Shown here one piece after another: positions 1 to 6,605 of a DNA stretch of 6,605 bases. Made by a program: the position numbers and the translations under genes. The DNA is from a virus (Duplodnaviria > Heunggongvirae > Uroviricota > Caudoviricetes), in the IMG/VR virus record IMGVR_UViG_2778261256_000001; one strand, 5' to 3'. The notes under the pieces were generated by a model that was not told the origin of the DNA, made no database searches, and worked only from the letters and a program-made list of their open reading frames with translations. Position 1 is the stretch's first letter, and each line of letters opens with the position of its first letter.

Positions 1-158
1 TCGAAACGTACTCTCAACAGTTCGCTTAGGCATGGAAGTTTTGCGGCATTCTGGCTACACAATAACAAGGGAAGACTCACTCGTGGCTGCAACCCTGCTT
101 ACTCAAAATCTATTCACACATGGTTACGTTTTGGGGAAATTATGAGGGGATCTCTCAG
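1..158 (+). mobile_element. IS10: Terminal segment of an IS10-type insertion sequence (inside end). The reverse complement of 136-158 reads CTGAGAGATCCCCTCATAATTTC, with a GATC at 149-152. The element continues beyond the window start.
   Basis: Recognised from memory as the IS10 inside-end terminal repeat. The transposase C-terminus ends inside the repeat. Lambda ren sequence resumes abruptly at 159. Confidence 0.8.
2..145 (+). CDS. IS10 transposase, C-terminal fragment (5' end outside the window)
   Basis: Frame 2 translates to RNVLSTVRLGMEVLRHSGYTITREDSLVAATLLTQNLFTHGYVLGKL with stop at 143-145, which matches the IS10/Tn10 transposase C-terminus as I recall it. Confidence 0.75.
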   Translation, partial: RNVLSTVRLGMEVLRHSGYTITREDSLVAATLLTQNLFTHGYVLGKL

Positions 159-204
159 TATTATGCGTCCCCAGGTAATGAATAATTGCCTCTTTGCCCG
201 TCAT
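159..204 (-). pseudogene. ren: ren remnant. The first 15 codons (MTGKEAIIHYLGTHN) are interrupted by the IS10 end; the chimeric frame stops at 124-126.
   Basis: ATG at 204-202 overlaps the P stop in an ATGA arrangement as in lambda. The N-terminus matches lambda Ren, then diverges exactly at the IS terminus. Confidence 0.7.
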
Positions 205-902
205 ACACTTGCTCCTTTCAGTCCGAACTTAGCTTTAATTTCTGCGATCTTCGCCAGAGCCTGTGCACGATTTAGAGGTCTACCGCCCATAACAGGAAGT
301 TGTTTTACTGGTTCAGGTATCGTCTCACCACGGTTAATTCGCGCTGTCATACAGGTCAGTTCATCGGCAGCCTTGCGCCGTAATTCCGCATCAGTAAGCG
401 CATTGGCCCGCATGTTCTGATACAGGTTGGTAACCAGCCAGTAGTGCGCGTTTGATTTCCACGGATAAGACTCCGCATCCGGATACAGGCCTCGCTTCCG
501 GCAATACTCGTAAACCATATCAACCAGCTCGCTGACGTTTGGCAGTCCGGCGATAACGGATGCTTCTTCCCGGCACCATGCAACAAACTGCCCGGGTGAT
601 GGCAGAAATGGTCGATTCTGCCGACGGGCTACGCGCATTCCTGCGTTAACCTGTTCCATTGTGGTGATCCCGTTTTCCCGGAAAGCCAGAACCCACTGGC
701 GGCGGATTTCGTTCAGTTCGTTCTGGTCACGGTTAGCCAGACTCGCCGGGAAAGTTGCCAGTAACTGGCTGAACACACCGTTGATGATCTGCGCTACCTG
801 CTGTACCTGTGGCTTTTTGTCGTACTGTTCCGGCATGTTGTTGGCGATCCGACGCATCTGCTCACGGTCAAAGTTAACCATCTGTGCGGCGATGTTTTTC
901 AT
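201..902 (-). CDS. P: Replication protein P (DnaB helicase loader), 233 aa
   Basis: Complete ORF in the track. Sequence matches lambda P as recalled. Its start overlaps the O stop. Confidence 0.95.
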   Translation of the reverse strand: MKNIAAQMVNFDREQMRRIANNMPEQYDKKPQVQQVAQIINGVFSQLLATFPASLANRDQNELNEIRRQWVLAFRENGITTMEQVNAGMRVARRQNRPFLPSPGQFVAWCREEASVIAGLPNVSELVDMVYEYCRKRGLYPDAESYPWKSNAHYWLVTNLYQNMRANALTDAELRRKAADELTCMTARINRGETIPEPVKQLPVMGGRPLNRAQALAKIAEIKAKFGLKGASV

Positions 903-1798
903 AGATCCACCCCGTAAATCCAGTCAGTGTTTGTCAGGTCGAGTTTTGGTTTTCCGGCTGTCACGCCAGCCTGTTGCTTGTTACGGTTGATTTCGAGCTG
1001 GGTCCACTTGTCGCGGAGTTTGGCCGGACTCAGCACGTTACCGGACCAGAAGTTGTCCTGGCAGGCCCAGCGGAAAAGCACACACATATCGCGGTGGTTA
1101 CGTCCGTCACGTTCACGCATCAGGCGGATATCGTTAGCCCACCCAGCAAAATTCGGTTTTCTGGCTGATGGCGCGATGGTCTTCACCATGTCAAACATCC
1201 ACTCTGCGGCGGTCAGGTCTTCTGCTGTTCCCCACTTACTGCCGCTCTGAATTGCAGCATCCGGTTTAACCACAGAAAGATCGTTTTCTGGCTGGTCAGA
1301 GGATTCGCCAGAATTCTCGGACGAATAATCTTTTCTTTTTTCTTTTGTAATAGTGTCTTTTGTGTCCCCCTGTTTTGAGGGATAGCAATCCCCCAATTTG
1401 AGGGATGTTTTATCCCTCGTTTTAGGGGATTTTCCCTCGTTTTGAGGGATGCACCATTCTGAGATGTTTTTGTTTGGTCCAAACATGCCGCCTTGCTGCT
1501 TGATAATATTCATTCTGACGAGTTCTAACTTGGCTTCATTGCACCGTTTGACAGGTAACTTTGTAATCTCGCTAAGTTGAGAATCGGTGATTCTGTCCAT
1601 TGGTTTATTCCACCCATAGGTTTTACGCAGAATGGCAAGCAGCACTTTAAACTGTCGCTTGGTCAGATCTGCGCCCGAATAAGCCTCAAGCAGCATATTT
1701 GATAGTCTGGCGTAACCATCATCGAGATCTGCCACATTACGCTCCTGTCCGGCAAAGTTACCTCTGCCGAAGTTGAGTATTTTTGCTGTATTTGTCAT
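899..1798 (-). CDS. O: Replication initiator O, 299 aa
   Basis: Complete ORF. Matches lambda O as recalled. The origin iterons lie inside the gene. Confidence 0.95.
   Translation of the reverse strand: MTNTAKILNFGRGNFAGQERNVADLDDGYARLSNMLLEAYSGADLTKRQFKVLLAILRKTYGWNKPMDRITDSQLSEITKLPVKRCNEAKLELVRMNIIKQQGGMFGPNKNISEWCIPQNEGKSPKTRDKTSLKLGDCYPSKQGDTKDTITKEKRKDYSSENSGESSDQPENDLSVVKPDAAIQSGSKWGTAEDLTAAEWMFDMVKTIAPSARKPNFAGWANDIRLMRERDGRNHRDMCVLFRWACQDNFWSGNVLSPAKLRDKWTQLEINRNKQQAGVTAGKPKLDLTNTDWIYGVDL
1365..1450. repeat. ori: Lambda-type origin: four roughly 18-bp iterons (TCCC..TTTGAGGGAT-like, at 1365-1383, 1389-1406, 1413-1430 and 1433-1450), with an adjacent AT-rich tract at 1321-1362
   Basis: Four tandem near-identical repeats are directly visible. 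The flanking T-rich stretch is typical of the O-binding origin within the O gene. Confidence 0.85.
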
Positions 1799-1807
1799 AA
1801 TGACTCC

Positions 1808-1875
1808 TGTGGATTGATCCAGTCTTTCTACATCAGGCCTCGAAGAATTCGCCGTTCTTCGGGGCTTTTTCTTTT
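1808..1875 (+). ncRNA. oop: Candidate oop-like antisense RNA over the 3' end of cII. Putative promoter: -35 TTGAGT at 1773-1778 and -10 CATAAT at 1796-1801. Ends at an intrinsic terminator.
   Basis: Position is analogous to lambda oop. A strong hairpin plus T-run lies on the plus strand. The sequence itself differs from lambda oop as I recall it. Confidence 0.45.
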
Positions 1876-2114
1876 GTCAGGTAATTGGCAAGCCGCTTAG
1901 TCAGCTCAGCCATTTCATCGTCTTCGATTCCGTATTCCAGAACAGCCAGCATCATGCTTACCTGCGAGAAGAAACCATTCTTCCATCGGCTTACCTGATA
2001 TTCAGGAACCCCCATTGCTCGAGCGAATGTCTTCTGCCCCATCAGTGCCAGTTTGTTCAGCAAGGCTGACTCGATGCGAGCCGCTTTCTTGCTTTTAGTT
2101 GCAATAGTACTCAT
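1833..2114 (-). CDS. cII: CII-like transcriptional activator, 93 aa, diverged from lambda CII
   Basis: Shares blocks with lambda CII (RIESALLNK, SRWK, MLLAVLE). Has a Shine-Dalgarno AAGGAA upstream and sits between cro and O. Confidence 0.85.
   Translation of the reverse strand: MSTIATKSKKAARIESALLNKLALMGQKTFARAMGVPEYQVSRWKNGFFSQVSMMLAVLEYGIEDDEMAELTKRLANYLTKEKAPKNGEFFEA
1837..1875 (+). terminator. Intrinsic terminator: stem 1837-1847 pairs with 1855-1865, followed by TTTTTCTTTT
   Basis: An 11-bp stem (one G-U pair) followed by a T-run, on the plus strand. Confidence 0.6.
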
Positions 2115-2121
2115 AGATAAT
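2089..2121 (+). promoter_or_regulatory. PRE-like promoter: TTGC-N6-TTGC direct repeat (2089-2092 and 2099-2102) and -10-like GATAAT at 2116-2121, reading toward cI
   Basis: The repeat has the geometry of the CII binding site at lambda PRE and overlaps the cII start, as in lambda. Confidence 0.6.
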
Positions 2122-2190
2122 TTCCTTAATGATTAGATAGAGTTGGCTTCGCAAAGAAACGCAAAACCATAGAGATTTGTTTCTGGTAAT

Positions 2191-2221
2191 GCCCTTTTTC
2201 AGGGCGGGGATGTGTAAGAGC
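2191..2221 (-). promoter_or_regulatory. nutR: nutR: on the minus strand, boxA CGCTCTTAC (2213-2221) and boxB GCCCTGAAAAAGGGC (2191-2205)
   Basis: Both motifs are read directly and lie just downstream of cro on the PR transcript. Confidence 0.8.
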
Positions 2222-2230
2222 GTTAATAAC

Positions 2231-2461
2231 TTAAGCGGCCATTAATTCAGGCCAGATGCTTTCCCAATCAACCGGATGAAGGTCTTTGCGAGTCACTTCA
2301 CCATTGCTGAACTTCTCAATCAGAACACAAAGTGCTGCGCCCAATTCATGATTACGGCTAAGTGCTTTCCTCAAATAGCCGATAGAAGTTCCGCACTTGG
2401 TGGCAAATTCTCTCTGCTCTTCCAGTGAAAGGGAGTTCAGATACAAGCGGAGTTCTTCCAT
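2231..2461 (-). CDS. cro: Cro-like small DNA-binding regulator, 76 aa, not lambda Cro
   Basis: First gene downstream of the PR-like promoter and divergent from cI. Has Shine-Dalgarno GGAGA and a helix-turn-helix-like segment (EFATKCGTSIGYLRKAL). Confidence 0.75.
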   Translation of the reverse strand: MEELRLYLNSLSLEEQREFATKCGTSIGYLRKALSRNHELGAALCVLIEKFSNGEVTRKDLHPVDWESIWPELMAA

Positions 2462-2493
2462 TTGCTATCTCCTTCCCGTTGTTGAATAAGATG

Positions 2494-2563
2494 ATTTTAC
2501 CTGTAGGTAAAAAGCAAATCAATACCCATAGGTTATTTACCGGCAGGTAATCAAAGATAGAAT
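2494..2563. promoter_or_regulatory. OR region. PR on the minus strand: -35 TTGATT (2517-2522) and -10 TAAAAT (2494-2499). PRM-like -10 TAGAAT on the plus strand (2558-2563), placing the transcript start about at the cI ATG. Operators: TACCTGTAGGTA (2498-2509), a weak TACCCATAGGTTA (2523-2535) and TACCGGCAGGTA (2538-2549).
   Basis: Palindromic 12-mers overlap promoter hexamers with 17-bp spacing, in a divergent cI/cro arrangement. Confidence 0.7.
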
Positions 2564-2569
2564 TAAATC

Positions 2570-3256
2570 ATGGATAAATACGAACAAAGACGACTAAGGC
2601 TGATAGAGATAAGAGACCGATTCTGTAATGGAAAGGCCTCAGAGTTGGCTCGTCGAATAGAAAGGGAACCATCATACGTTTCCAGAATGCTGTATCCGGA
2701 AGGAAAAAGCGGAAAAAAACGCATTGCTGACGATATGATGGAACTAATTGAAAAATCTTTTAATCTCCCACGCGGATGGATGGACATGCTTGCAGATGGT
2801 AAAGCTGGAGCTACAGACCATCTTGAGTTTGCGGGTAACGTTCGTGCGGGTTTTGTTCCGGTAATTGGTGAAGCCGTTTTGGGAGTTGATGGCTCAGTGG
2901 ATATGATTGAATTCAGATCCGGTTGGTTAAGCATCTACAGCGGCGATAACGATGCTTACGGTCTGAAGGTTAAGGGTGACAGCATGTGGCCAAGGATTCA
3001 GTCAGGAGAATATGTTGTTATTGAACCAAATACGCCAGTACATCCAGGTGATGAAGTCTTTGTAAGGACCAAAGACGGTCACAACATGATAAAGATCATG
3101 AACAAAACAAGAGACGGTGATTATCAGTTTAGTAGCATAAACAGTGATCACCGCCCAATCACTCTTCCTGTTGAAGAAGTTGATAAAATGCATTTTGTTT
3201 CAGCTATTGTGAAACACACCAGGTACGTAGACCAGGACGATCTGCCAAAAGTTTGA
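2570..3256 (+). CDS. cI: CI-like prophage repressor, 228 aa: N-terminal helix-turn-helix and C-terminal LexA/S24-type autopeptidase domain
   Basis: Helix-turn-helix-like segment GKASELARRIEREPSYVSRML. S24-like motif KVKGDSMWP with a downstream Lys. Ala-Gly candidates at FAGN and RAGF. Divergent from cro. Confidence 0.9.
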   Translation: MDKYEQRRLRLIEIRDRFCNGKASELARRIEREPSYVSRMLYPEGKSGKKRIADDMMELIEKSFNLPRGWMDMLADGKAGATDHLEFAGNVRAGFVPVIGEAVLGVDGSVDMIEFRSGWLSIYSGDNDAYGLKVKGDSMWPRIQSGEYVVIEPNTPVHPGDEVFVRTKDGHNMIKIMNKTRDGDYQFSSINSDHRPITLPVEEVDKMHFVSAIVKHTRYVDQDDLPKV

Positions 3257-3567
3257 GGATAAAGCAGCAAGTGTTTATACCCGGCATAGTAGTCGCTGTT
3301 GTAATCATCTGCTTCATATGGGCAAAGTTATCTCCTGTAAGCTCTAAGCATACAGCTGAACTCATGAAGAAGAAGCATCTTATACATGAGGCAGAATCGA
3401 TAATTAAAAAGTTCAAAGGCATGTCATACGACGACATGTCATCAGAGCAGATTGCTATGTATAAATGCGCCATTGAGCGTCTTGACTACTTAAACGGACT
3501 CAAACCCAAACACACCCCAGTAGAATCAAAATTGCCGCAATGGCCAAGCAATCCAAATAGCTTCTGA
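3253..3567 (+). CDS. Small membrane-anchored protein of unknown function (about 98-104 aa) in the rexAB slot. The start is uncertain: TTG at 3253 overlaps the cI stop, or more likely GTG at 3271 with GAGGA at 3255-3259.
   Basis: ORF sits immediately after cI on the same strand. Hydrophobic segment VFIPGIVVAVVIICFIW is followed by a K/E-rich tail, and an intrinsic terminator follows. Confidence 0.55.
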   Translation: MRIKQQVFIPGIVVAVVIICFIWAKLSPVSSKHTAELMKKKHLIHEAESIIKKFKGMSYDDMSSEQIAMYKCAIERLDYLNGLKPKHTPVESKLPQWPSNPNSF

Positions 3568-3578
3568 CATCTCCTTTC

Positions 3579-3602
3579 AGCCCGCAAAGCGGGCTTTTTT
3601 AT
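3579..3602 (+). terminator. Intrinsic terminator: AGCCCGC-AAA-GCGGGCT followed by TTTTTT
   Basis: Perfect 7-bp GC-rich stem, 3-nt loop and T-run, directly after the small ORF and before PL. Confidence 0.75.
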
Positions 3603-3617
3603 ATCAATCCAAAAAAT

Positions 3618-3713
3618 TAATTACCTGAAAATTCAAGCAGGTAAACTCTTACATCAATTTTATTTACCTGCAGGTATAGACAACTGTTTTACCTGTAGGT
3701 ATATTTTAGGCCA
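3618..3713 (+). promoter_or_regulatory. PL/OL. PL: -35 TAGACA (3677-3682), 17-bp spacer, -10 TATATT (3700-3705), start near 3713. Operators: TACCTGTAGGTA (3690-3701) and TACCTGCAGGTA (3665-3676). A split inverted repeat TTACCTG-N10-CAGGTAA lies at 3621-3644.
   Basis: Same palindrome family as at OR. Promoter hexamers are correctly spaced. Lambda-like sequence begins at the transcript start. Confidence 0.7.
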
Positions 3714-3745
3714 TCAGCAGGACGCACTGACCACCATGAAGGTGA

Positions 3746-3776
3746 TGCTCTTAAAAATTAAGCCCTGAAGAAGGGC
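3746..3776 (+). promoter_or_regulatory. nutL: nutL: boxA TGCTCTTAA (3746-3754) and boxB GCCCTGAAGAAGGGC (3762-3776)
   Basis: boxB hairpin matches lambda nutL as recalled and lies in the N leader. Confidence 0.85.
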
Positions 3777-3933
3777 AGCATTCAAAGCAGAAGGCTTTGG
3801 TGTGTGTGATACGAAACGAAGCATTGGCCGGAAGTGCGAATCCGGATTAGCTGTCAATGTGCCATTGCTGGGTGTTTTCGTTCAGGACTACGACTCCCAC
3901 ACACAACCAAAGCTAACTGACAGGAGAATCCAG

Positions 3934-4257
3934 ATGGATGCACAAACACGCCGCCGCGAACGTCGCGCAGAGAAACAGGCTCAATGGAAAGCAGCAAATC
4001 CCCTGTTGGTTGGGGTAAGCGCAAAACCAGTTAACCGCCCTATTCTCTCGCTGAATCGCAAACCGAAATCACGAGTAGAAAGCGCACTAAATCCGATAGA
4101 CCTTACAGTGCTGGCTGAATACCACAAACAGATTGAAAGCAACCTGCAACGTATTGAGCGCAAGAATCAGCGCACATGGTACAGCAAGCCTGGCGAACGC
4201 GGCATAACATGCAGTGGACGCCAGAAAATTAAGGGAAAATCGATTCCTCTTACTTAG
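3934..4257 (+). CDS. N: Antitermination protein N, 107 aa
   Basis: MDAQTRRRERRAEKQAQWKAANPLL... matches lambda N as recalled. Shine-Dalgarno AGGAG upstream. The longer track ORF from 3802 is leader sequence. Confidence 0.95.
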   Translation: MDAQTRRRERRAEKQAQWKAANPLLVGVSAKPVNRPILSLNRKPKSRVESALNPIDLTVLAEYHKQIESNLQRIERKNQRTWYSKPGERGITCSGRQKIKGKSIPLT

Positions 4258-4812
4258 TTACTTAGATATTGGCCTTGGCTTTATCTCAATATTATATGGA
4301 TCATAGCTGGCAACTAATTCAGTCCAGTAAATATCCTCAATAGGGAATAATATATGCTTCCCGTTCCATCGGGAAAAAGTTTTGTTCAACACACCAAGCT
4401 CAATCAACTCACTAATGTATGGGAATTGTTTTGATGTAACCACATACTTCCTGCCTTCATTAAGGGCTGCGCACAAAACCATAGATTGCTCTTCTGTAAG
4501 GTTTTGAATTACTGATCGCACTTTATCGTTTTGCATCTTAATGCGTTTTCTTAGCTTAAATCGCTTATATCTGGCGCTGGCAATAGCTGATAATCGATGC
4601 ACATTAATTGCTAGCGAAAATGCAAGAGCAAAGACGAAAACATGCCACACATGAGGAATACCGATTCTCTCATTAACATATTCAGGCCAGTTATCTGGGC
4701 TTAAAAGCAGAAGTCCAACCCAGATAACGATCATATACATGGTTCTCTCCAGAGGTTCATTACTGAACACTCGTCCGAGAATAACGAGTGGATCCATTTC
4801 TATACTCATCAA
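4258..4812 (-). CDS. sieB: Superinfection exclusion protein SieB, 184 aa, membrane protein
   Basis: Same length and position (abutting the N stop on the opposite strand) as lambda sieB. Contains hydrophobic segments. Confidence 0.9.
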   Translation of the reverse strand: MMSIEMDPLVILGRVFSNEPLERTMYMIVIWVGLLLLSPDNWPEYVNERIGIPHVWHVFVFALAFSLAINVHRLSAIASARYKRFKLRKRIKMQNDKVRSVIQNLTEEQSMVLCAALNEGRKYVVTSKQFPYISELIELGVLNKTFSRWNGKHILFPIEDIYWTELVASYDPYNIEIKPRPISK

Positions 4813-4936
4813 ACTGTAGGGGTTGTAATAGTTTATCCGATTTCTCGCTGTAGGGGTACACGAGAACCACCGAGCCTGATGTGGTTAAAAGACAGGCACA
4901 ATCTTTACTACCGCTATCCACTATTTAAGGTGATAT

Positions 4937-5023
4937 ATGGAAGAAGAATTTGAAGAGTTCGAAGAGCATCCTCAGGATGTGATGGAACAATACCAGGACT
5001 ATCCGTATGACTACGACTATTGA
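4937..5023 (+). CDS. orf28, small acidic 28-aa peptide (MEEEFEEFEEHPQDVMEQYQDYPYDYDY)
   Basis: Hand-translated; too short for the ORF track. It overlaps the ral start by 17 nt, as in lambda. Confidence 0.75.
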   Translation: MEEEFEEFEEHPQDVMEQYQDYPYDYDY

Positions 5024-5207
5024 TAAAAATCAATGGTGTGGACAATTCAAGCGATGCAATGGATGCAAGCTGCAATCGGAATACATGGTTAAGCCTGAAG
5101 AAATGTTTCCTGTAATGGAAGATGGGAAATATGTCGATAAATGGGCAATACGAACGACGGCAATGATTGCCAGAGAACTTGGTAAACAGAACAACAAAGC
5201 TGCCTGA
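5007..5207 (+). CDS. ral: Ral, restriction-alleviation protein, 66 aa
   Basis: MTTTIDKNQWCGQFKRCNGCKLQSE... matches lambda Ral as recalled. Confidence 0.92.
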   Translation: MTTTIDKNQWCGQFKRCNGCKLQSEYMVKPEEMFPVMEDGKYVDKWAIRTTAMIARELGKQNNKAA

Positions 5208-5344
5208 TAGTGACCTTTATTTTTGGCATAAATAACAGAATAAACACTGCACTGTGTATTCATTCCAACGAGTGAATACACGGAGCAATGTCGCTCGTAA
5301 CTAAACAGGAGCCGACTTGTTCTGATTATTGGAAATCTTCTTTG

Positions 5345-5369
5345 CCCTCCAGTGTGAGGGAGATTTTTT
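5345..5369 (+). terminator. Candidate weak intrinsic terminator (CCCTC-loop-GAGGG then TTTTTT) between ral and ea10; may correspond to a lambda tL site
   Basis: 5-bp GC-rich stem followed by a T-run on the plus strand. Confidence 0.3.
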
Positions 5370-5389
5370 ATCTATGAGGATATGAATAG

Positions 5390-5758
5390 ATGTCAAACAT
5401 CAAAAAATACATCATTGATTACGACTGGAAAGCATCAATAGAAATTGAAATCGACCATGACGTAATGACAGAGGAAAAACTTCACCAGATTAATAATTTC
5501 TGGTCAGACTCTGAATACCGACTCAATAAACACGGCTCTGTATTAAATGCTGTATTAATCATGCTGGCGCAACATGCTCTGCTTATAGCAATTTCAAGCG
5601 ACTTAAATGCATATGGTGTTGTGTGTGAGTTCGACTGGAATGATGGAAGTGGTCAGGAAGGATGGCCTCCAATGGATGGTAGCGAAGGAATAAGAATTAC
5701 CGATATCGATACATCAGGAATATTTGATCCAGATGATATGACTGTCAAAGCCGCCTGA
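5390..5758 (+). CDS. ea10: Ea10 early protein, 122 aa
   Basis: Complete ORF. Length and position match lambda ea10. Confidence 0.9.
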   Translation: MSNIKKYIIDYDWKASIEIEIDHDVMTEEKLHQINNFWSDSEYRLNKHGSVLNAVLIMLAQHALLIAISSDLNAYGVVCEFDWNDGSGQEGWPPMDGSEGIRITDIDTSGIFDPDDMTVKAA

Positions 5759-5830
5759 GCGCGGCGTTACCGCATACCAATTACGCTTCACTCGAGGCGT
5801 TTTTCGTTATGTATAAATAAGGAGCACACC

Positions 5831-5995
5831 ATGCAATATGCCATTGCAGGGTGGCCTGTTGCTGGCTGCCCTTCCGAATCTTTACTTGAACGAATCACCC
5901 GTAAATTACGTGACGGATGGAAACGCCTTATCGACATACTTAATCAGCCAGGAGTCCCAAAGAATGGATCAAACACGTATGGCTATCCAGACTAA
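5831..5995 (+). CDS. cIII: CIII, 54 aa, inhibitor of FtsH-mediated CII degradation
   Basis: Hand translation [54 protein letters not shown] matches lambda CIII. Shine-Dalgarno GGAG upstream. Confidence 0.92.
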   Translation: MQYAIAGWPVAGCPSESLLERITRKLRDGWKRLIDILNQPGVPKNGSNTYGYPD

Positions 5996-6107
5996 ATTCA
6001 CTATCGCCACTTTTATTGGCGATGAAAAGATGTTTCGTGAAGCCGTCGACGCTTATAAAAAATGGATATTAATGCTGAAACTGAGATCAAGCAAAAGCAT
6101 TCACTAA
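5964..6107 (+). CDS. kil: Kil, 47 aa, host-killing/FtsZ-inhibiting peptide; overlaps the cIII 3' end by 32 nt
   Basis: [47 protein letters not shown] is the C-terminal part of track ORF 5838..6107. The overlap geometry is as in lambda. Confidence 0.88.
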
Positions 6108-6478
6108 CCCCCTTTCCTGTTTTCCTAATCAGCCTGGCATTTCGCGGGCGATATTTTCACAGCTATTTCAGGAGTTCAGCCATGAACGCTTATTACATTC
6201 AGGATCGTCTTGAGGCTCAGAGCTGGGCGCGTCACTACCAGCAGATCGCCCGTGAAGAGAAAGAGGCAGAACTGGCAGACGACATGGAAAAAGGCCTGCC
6301 CCAGCACCTGTTTGAATCGCTATGCATCGATCATTTGCAACGCCACGGGGCCAGCAAAAAAGCCATTACCCGTGCGTTTGATGACGATGTTGAGTTTCAG
6401 GAGCGCATGGCAGAACACATCCGGTACATGGTTGAAACCATTGCTCACCACCAGGTTGATATTGATTCAGAGGTATAA
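6062..6478 (+). CDS. gam: Gam, RecBCD inhibitor: long form 138 aa, with a short-form start at 6182 (MNAYYIQ...)
   Basis: Complete ORF. Matches lambda Gam as recalled. Confidence 0.95.
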
Positions 6479-6483
6479 AACGG

Positions 6484-6605
6484 ATGAGTACAGCACTCGC
6501 AACGCTGGCTGGGAAGCTGGCTGAACGAGTCGGCATGGATTCTGTCGACCCACAGGAACTGATCACCACTCTTCGCCAGACGGCATTTAAAGGTGATGCC
6601 AGCGA
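6484..6605 (+). CDS. bet: Bet recombinase (Red-beta), N-terminal 40 codons; continues beyond the window
   Basis: MSTALATLAGKLAERVGMDSVDPQELITTLRQTAFKGDAS matches the lambda Bet N-terminus. Starts 5 nt after the gam stop. Confidence 0.9.
   Translation, partial: MSTALATLAGKLAERVGMDSVDPQELITTLRQTAFKGDAS

Follow-up and report, generated by a model that had tools for sequence, protein, structure and literature searches.

A solo IS10-Left-type element very probably interrupts ren in a lambda-like prophage of Escherichia coli

In bacteriophage lambda, ren (NP_040633.1) is the last replication-cluster gene of the pR operon. It is placed directly after P, with its start codon overlapping the P stop codon (ATGA), and is a non-essential accessory gene. 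IS10, a member of the IS4 family, moves by non-replicative, cut-and-paste transposition with a 9-bp staggered cut of the target, for which the preferred sequence is NGCTNAGCN. Dam methylation of the GATC site in the inside end of the element is regulatory, and a fully methylated site limits the use of this end. The two IS10 copies of R100 (NC_002134.1), the plasmid that carries Tn10, differ from each other at 15 positions, 6 of which lie within the last 158 bp, and they can be told apart by the jemA...tetD-IS10-right gene order of Tn10 (PMC5571418). The transposase of IS10-Left has been reported to have little or no activity (PMC5571418, PMC11148124), and solo IS10L hops have been seen in laboratory strains (PMC11481808).

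The window analyzed here, the whole 6605-bp stretch of DNA, is the early region of a lambda-like prophage in the orientation opposite to that of the lambda map, and its first 158 bases are one end of an IS10 element. Positions 1 to 158 match IS10 copies at 158 of 158 positions (E = 6e-77) and correspond, on the plus strand, to IS10 nucleotides 1172 to 1329, the remainder of the element lying beyond the contig end. Matches at ≥99% were found in 571 plasmid records, including that of R100. Frame 2 of the plus strand encodes the C-terminus of the transposase (positions 2 to 145), in which 47 codons, cut by the contig end, are followed by a stop codon at 143-145. This tail (RNVLSTV...LTQNLFTHGYVLGKL and stop) is exactly that of the R100 IS10-Left-type transposase. 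The gene reads toward the inside end, and its remaining 355 codons are past the contig end. In the minus-strand reading, the inside-end terminal repeat CTGAGAGATCCCCTCATAATTTC occupies positions 136 to 158 with its Dam site (GATC) at 149-152, and positions 133 to 158 agree base for base with the two inside ends of the R100 Tn10. An earlier note, made from the letters alone, had recognized an IS10 inside end with a dam GATC site and a frame 2 transposase C-terminus ending in ...LFTHGYVLGKL with its stop at 143-145. The Dam site and the frame were found where it had read them, and the alignment, which might have pointed to some other sequence, agrees with IS10 at each of the 158 bases. An ATG within the inside end (ATGAGGGGATCTCTCAG; 142-144) opens outward-reading frames, among them a 92-aa ORF that crosses the IS10/phage junction on the plus strand (142-420), antisense to P. 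The protein look-up gave no record for this ORF, and it is probably spurious. The same ATG has been called as the start of IS10-truncated host genes in two comparison contigs (L015, 142-612; L016, 142-1029).

On its sequence, this IS10 end is of the IS10-Left type. The comparison with both reference copies, which the earlier note had recommended, gave no mismatch with the R100 copy beside gltS/jemA and six mismatches with the tetD-side copy, IS10-Right, at window positions 78, 97, 100, 101, 110, and 129. Together with the jemA/tetD gene order, this assigns the window allele to the Left type, and an IS10-Right identity was rejected on the six mismatches. Three of the six Left/Right differences alter residues of the transposase tail (S/L, T/A, and V/A). 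The IS10-Left of the R100 Tn10, annotated by PGAP as "IS4-like element ISVsa5 family," is therefore like the window element in all 158 bases, including the six diagnostic positions. The R100 copy is the arm of a composite transposon, whereas the window element is free-standing in a prophage gene, without adjoining tet or jem genes.

The gene in question is ren, of which the window retains a 5' remnant on the minus strand (159-204). The start codon lies at 204-202 and overlaps the P stop codon (ATGA) as in lambda, codon 15 lies at 162-160, and the final ren base, the first of codon 16, is position 159. Codons 1 to 15 read MTGKEAIIHYLGTHN, and these 15 residues are identical to those of lambda Ren (NC_001416) and to those of the intact ren of the closest relative. 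BLAST alignments with prophage DNA carrying intact P and ren begin exactly at position 159, at 100% identity. Since the intact ren (...CATAATA/GCTTC) and the window (...CATAATA/CTGAG) diverge right at the junction, the breakpoint at 158/159 is unambiguous. The complete 96-aa Ren frame is missing from the window, where 15 native codons remain, and both the sequence and the comparison with lambda Ren uphold the earlier claim that ren is truncated after codon 15. From position 158 downward, the minus strand reads CTGAGAGATCCCCTCATAATTTCCCC, so that the ren frame continues into IS10 as a fusion (124-204) of 15 Ren and 11 IS10-derived codons with a stop at 126-124. The resulting 26-aa peptide, MTGKEAIIHYLGTHNTERSPHNFPKT (MTGKEAIIHYLGTHN-TERSPHNFPKT and stop), is absent from a collection of 15 billion proteins. 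Ren is presumably inactivated, with this 26-aa peptide left. Downstream of the insertion, the first in-frame start is Met40. Translation from it would yield 57 aa, and exactly this product is recorded on 70 contigs. In comparison with lambda, then, the placement after P, the ATGA overlap, and residues 1 to 15 are alike; the window copy differs in being cut to 15 native residues and in belonging to a prophage with non-lambda immunity and no rexAB. The intact 96-aa Ren of the relative matches phrog_142, "Ren-like exclusion protein," at 5e-42. In addition, residues 1 to 66 of the intact Ren (L002, 5756-6046) match phrog_1687, a family of MarR-like winged-helix regulators (E = 1.5e-10), which hints that Ren may be a DNA-binding protein; the NCBIfam models gave no match to this protein.

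The nine bases next to the IS10 end, TATTATGCG at positions 159 to 167 (CGCATAATA in the ren sense; ren nucleotides 38 to 46), are one of the two copies of a 9-bp target duplication. The earlier note had proposed these bases as the candidate target and had advised looking for their duplicate at the other junction. That duplicate was found on a separate contig of 12,617 bp, L030 (NNVY01000081.1 of GCA_002485945.1). Positions 1 to 75 of L030 are an IS10 outside end with no mismatch to the Left type and four to the Right type, agreeing with the IS10-Left of R100 at all four diagnostic positions. Positions 76 to 84 are CGCATAATA, the reverse complement of window positions 159 to 167, and after position 84 follow ren from nucleotide 47 to its stop and then NinB, Dam, NinE, NinX, RusA, YlcG, Q, and the late region. 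The phage DNA of L030 (6254 bp) is 100% identical to that of L005 and L007, both of which differ from window positions 159 to 6605 at only 2 to 3 bases. From these identities we strongly infer that the window and L030 junctions belong to one genome. The target matches the IS10 consensus weakly, at 3 of the 6 specified positions; 10 other inside-end junctions matched at 2 to 6 positions (mean, 4.2), with 1.5 expected by chance. A 40-mer spanning the window junction and the predicted opposite junction each had no match among the GTDB representative genomes, a collection of one genome per species that is little informative here. A junction 27-mer had no match in the IMG/VR viral contigs or in the JGI metagenome contigs, and none of 5,426 complete E. 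coli genomes spans the IS10/ren junction. The look-up of the window's P protein returned contigs that all have an intact ren, and literature searches for IS10 together with ren and for the NNVY accession gave nothing relevant.

We consider it highly probable that these junctions result from a simple cut-and-paste insertion of one solo Left-type IS10 into ren of a lambda-like E. coli prophage, with duplication of 9 bp. A complete solo element would have entered ren at CGCATAATA and duplicated it, with its inside end toward P, as in the window, and its outside end toward the remainder of ren and the nin region, as on the other contig. Exactly one 1329-bp element would then lie between the two junctions. 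The transposase may have been supplied by the element itself or by an IS10-Right-type copy in the same cell, and its source is uncertain because of the reported inactivity or weakness of the IS10-Left enzyme (PMC5571418, PMC11148124). The earlier note had reasoned that an inside end abutting phage DNA pointed to a solo IS10 or to an inside-out or engineered configuration and away from a canonical Tn10, and this logic was right. Of its three options, the solo IS10 was chosen on the complementary junction in L030, with its outside end, CGCATAATA, and ren from nucleotide 38; nothing supports the inside-out or the engineered configuration. An insertion of Tn10 itself was rejected, as the target is bordered by an inside end at one junction and by an outside end at the other and no tet or jem gene adjoins the inside end.

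Of the element, the window contains 158 bp and a single junction, and the interior is assembled neither there nor in L030, so the two junctions might bracket more than one IS10, for example a direct-orientation pair or an IS10-flanked segment with an outside end as its left boundary and an inside end as its right. The deposited record NZ_CP026085.1 has, within nupG, a tandem pair of a Right-type and a Left-type IS10, 9 bp apart. Insertions of a single 1329-bp element are by far the more common form, however, and they produce just what is seen here, an outside end at one boundary, an inside end at the other, and a 9-bp direct repeat, which makes a complex structure unlikely. The window junction might also stem from a Tn10/IS10 rearrangement, such as inside-out transposition, an adjacent deletion, or an inversion, with the L030 junction being unrelated and in a different genome. 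Such events are known from Tn10 to leave an inside end against foreign DNA as well, and the origin of the window and L030 in one genome is itself deduced. The coincidence would nevertheless have to involve the same 9-bp target, the opposite end of the same allele, and the same prophage lineage, and the junction was otherwise seen neither in the three large collections nor in the 5,426 complete E. coli genomes, so the site is not a hotspot; we hold this to be very improbable. The short contig with repeats at both sides might suggest an assembly chimera, and engineering had been raised as a possibility in the earlier note. The breakpoint, however, falls exactly at the last IS10 base and is paired with a matching 9-bp-duplication junction, whereas a chimera would not mimic transposition chemistry; the close relatives are all wild isolates of human, pig, goat, or food origin, and the window contains no vector sequence. 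A chimera or an engineered construct is accordingly extremely improbable.

Free-standing insertions like the single Left-type IS10 preferred here occur elsewhere in E. coli. Full-length copies that are 100% identical to the Left-type allele split chromosomal genes in complete E. coli genomes. In FORC_042, a solo full-length (1329-bp) Left-type IS10 lies in a lysR-family gene between yhjD and yhjB, with the 9-bp target TACTCAGTT duplicated perfectly on its two sides. This insertion resembles that in the window in the 1329-bp allele, the single insertion, the 9-bp direct duplication, and the disruption of a gene, and differs from it in the target gene. Among complete E. coli replicons, counted per replicon and not per genome, 380 have a Left-type inside end without a Right-type one and 542 show the reverse, the rest having both. 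The IS10-Left type, called defective in textbooks, is yet common as a free element. In the nupG record (L021; NZ_CP026085.1, named DH5alpha), the two IS10 copies point the same way, one with a Right-type and one with a Left-type transposase. The 9-bp spacer between them, CGCCCAGCA, is the flanking TGCTGGGCG in reverse complement, and the arrangement is either unusual or an artifact of the assembly.

Both ends of the window are, on sequence comparison with other contigs, breaks of an assembly made at k=77 and not biological edges. The 47-aa transposase edge fragment is recorded in 556 blocks of public draft assemblies, and 10 of 10 contigs inspected open with the same 158 bases, beside which stand unrelated chromosomal genes. 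Position 1 of the window is IS10 nucleotide 1172, 77 nucleotides before the first Left/Right difference at nucleotide 1249; since 158 is the sum of 77 and 81, a 77-mer node falls immediately 5' of this difference. A de Bruijn graph with k=77 merges two IS10 alleles at such a point. A short-read assembly of this kind does not bridge the 1.3-kb repeat, and the contig therefore stops 158 bp inside IS10. With position 1 at such a break, the contig offers no sequence for the leftward extension that the earlier note had advised. Judging by the position of the break, at nucleotide 1249, an IS10 with the other allele may be present in the source genome as well. The breaks within IS10 are asymmetric, with 75 bp kept in L030 and 158 bp in the window, which would be explicable if the source genome had other Left-type outside ends. 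At the other end, the last 77 bases of the window are exactly common to L032, and the two sequences diverge immediately upstream of them. The contig L032, which belongs to the assembly that also contains L030, comes from another lambdoid prophage and meets the window sequence at a shared point in bet. The practical value of these comparisons is that the window boundaries are shown to be assembly artifacts and that GCA_002485945.1 can be named as a public assembly with the other half of the insertion.

The rest of the window has the gene content of a lambda-like early region. P (201-902, minus strand) is intact and lies directly upstream of ren in the pR operon; its 233-aa product is 97.4% identical to lambda P, and exactly the same protein occurs in relatives beside an intact ren. 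It is followed in the window by O (899-1798), a cII homolog (1833-2114), and a cro-like gene (2231-2461), all on the minus strand, and by a gene for an S24-peptidase repressor on the plus strand (2570-3256). N (ending at 4257, plus strand), sieB (4258-4812, minus strand), ral (5007-5207, plus strand), an ea10/DUF2528 gene (5390-5758, plus strand), and, on the plus strand, cIII, kil, gam, and the first 40 codons of bet complete the region. Compared with lambda (NC_001416), positions 3712 to 6294 are 98.7% identical and positions 159 to 2222 are 90% identical, and the segment from about 2222 to 3712 is a non-lambda immunity segment. Where lambda has rexA and rexB, in the interval from the repressor gene to N, the window has a plus-strand ORF of 98 to 104 aa (about 3253-3567). 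This ORF belongs to phrog_10450, a conserved phage family of unknown function (E = 1.4e-54), and gave no match in NCBIfam. In tblastn searches of the window, lambda RexA and RexB reached best E-values of 0.24 and 1.2, that is, no homolog, in agreement with the earlier statement that the prophage lacks rexAB. The link hinted at in the same statement, between this absence and the loss of ren, is not supported: the closest relatives share the immunity region without rexAB, yet the 96-aa ren is intact in all of them, and the connection was rejected.

This prophage lineage repeatedly gathers insertion sequences. In the closest complete-genome relative, that of E. coli 2018-18.25PC (NZ_AP023286.1; L006, 16056-20702, and L002, 1-850), an ISApl1-flanked unit lies in an AraC-like gene of the prophage late region. 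This unit carries a PAP2 gene and a gene for MCR-1 family colistin resistance (mcr-1; 1302.7 bits against a cutoff of 1100), and the prophage of the same strain has an IS1 in sieB. The ren gene is disrupted in other contigs as well, in ways that differ from the IS10 event. In L022, the ren junction is at nucleotide 47 and adjoins an exo-type (YqaJ) gene; in L023 and L024, the ren frame is shifted by a 1-bp deletion; and in L026 to L029, there is a mosaic ren junction near nucleotide 20. L025 and L031 have a transposase-like fragment (HTH_23/HTH_38) upstream of a ren junction at nucleotide 61, for which ISApl1 was considered and rejected, there being no similarity. Among the contigs with a disrupted ren, only L030 fits an IS10 insertion, the others showing different elements or mechanisms, and the existence of several unrelated disruptions fits a dispensable gene. 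The insertion reported here is one more example of the frequent landing of insertion sequences in this lineage. With a known element, a known behavior, and a dispensable target, it is already known biology. It carries little biological weight, since IS10 is among the best-studied insertion sequences and insertions of such elements in prophages are routine.

RNA polymerase that starts at pR and is modified by N passes terminators and insertions. The prophage is probably still inducible, since such N-modified transcription would read through the insertion and ren is not an essential gene. Transcription from pR would enter IS10 via its inside end, antisense to the transposase gene. At the other end of the element, pOUT would point into the remaining part of ren, and a tR2-like terminator lies between the ren stop and ninB (L030, 355-378). 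Unmodified transcripts from pOUT would stop at this terminator, which makes constitutive expression of nin and Q unlikely. Weak outward promoters near the inside end, pIII and OUTIIp, have been described in IS10 nucleotides 1000 to 1230 (PMC11481808). In the window, transcripts from them would read antisense into P and O and would stop at the latest at an oop-type terminator at 1835-1867.

The only unexplained item is a private single-base change at position 2495, in the control region between the cro-like gene and the repressor gene (2462-2569). The window has T at this position, whereas G is found in 5 of 5 close relatives and in 52 of 52 complete E. coli genomes with this immunity control region (best identity, 99.1%). 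The G-to-T change converts the -10 hexamer of a predicted minus-strand pR-like promoter from TAAACT to TAAAAT (TTGATT-17-TAAAAT, 2522 to 2494). It lies at the edge of an operator-like palindrome, which it lengthens to TTTTACCT-gt-AGGTAAAA (2495-2512). The change would improve the -10 of the predicted promoter and could be an up-promoter or operator mutation, or equally a sequencing or assembly error. It is very unlikely that the insertion is other than neutral, such that an IS10 between the replication genes and nin/Q together with the change at 2495, or outward transcription from IS10, affects the prophage switch or the expression of replication genes. If so, IS10 and the change at 2495 could be a linked pair that retunes early rightward transcription, for example, with the up-promoter offsetting polarity on Q. 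Independently of this, pOUT reading toward the ren remnant and tR2, and pIII and OUTIIp reading antisense into P and O, could modulate replication-gene expression in the lysogen.
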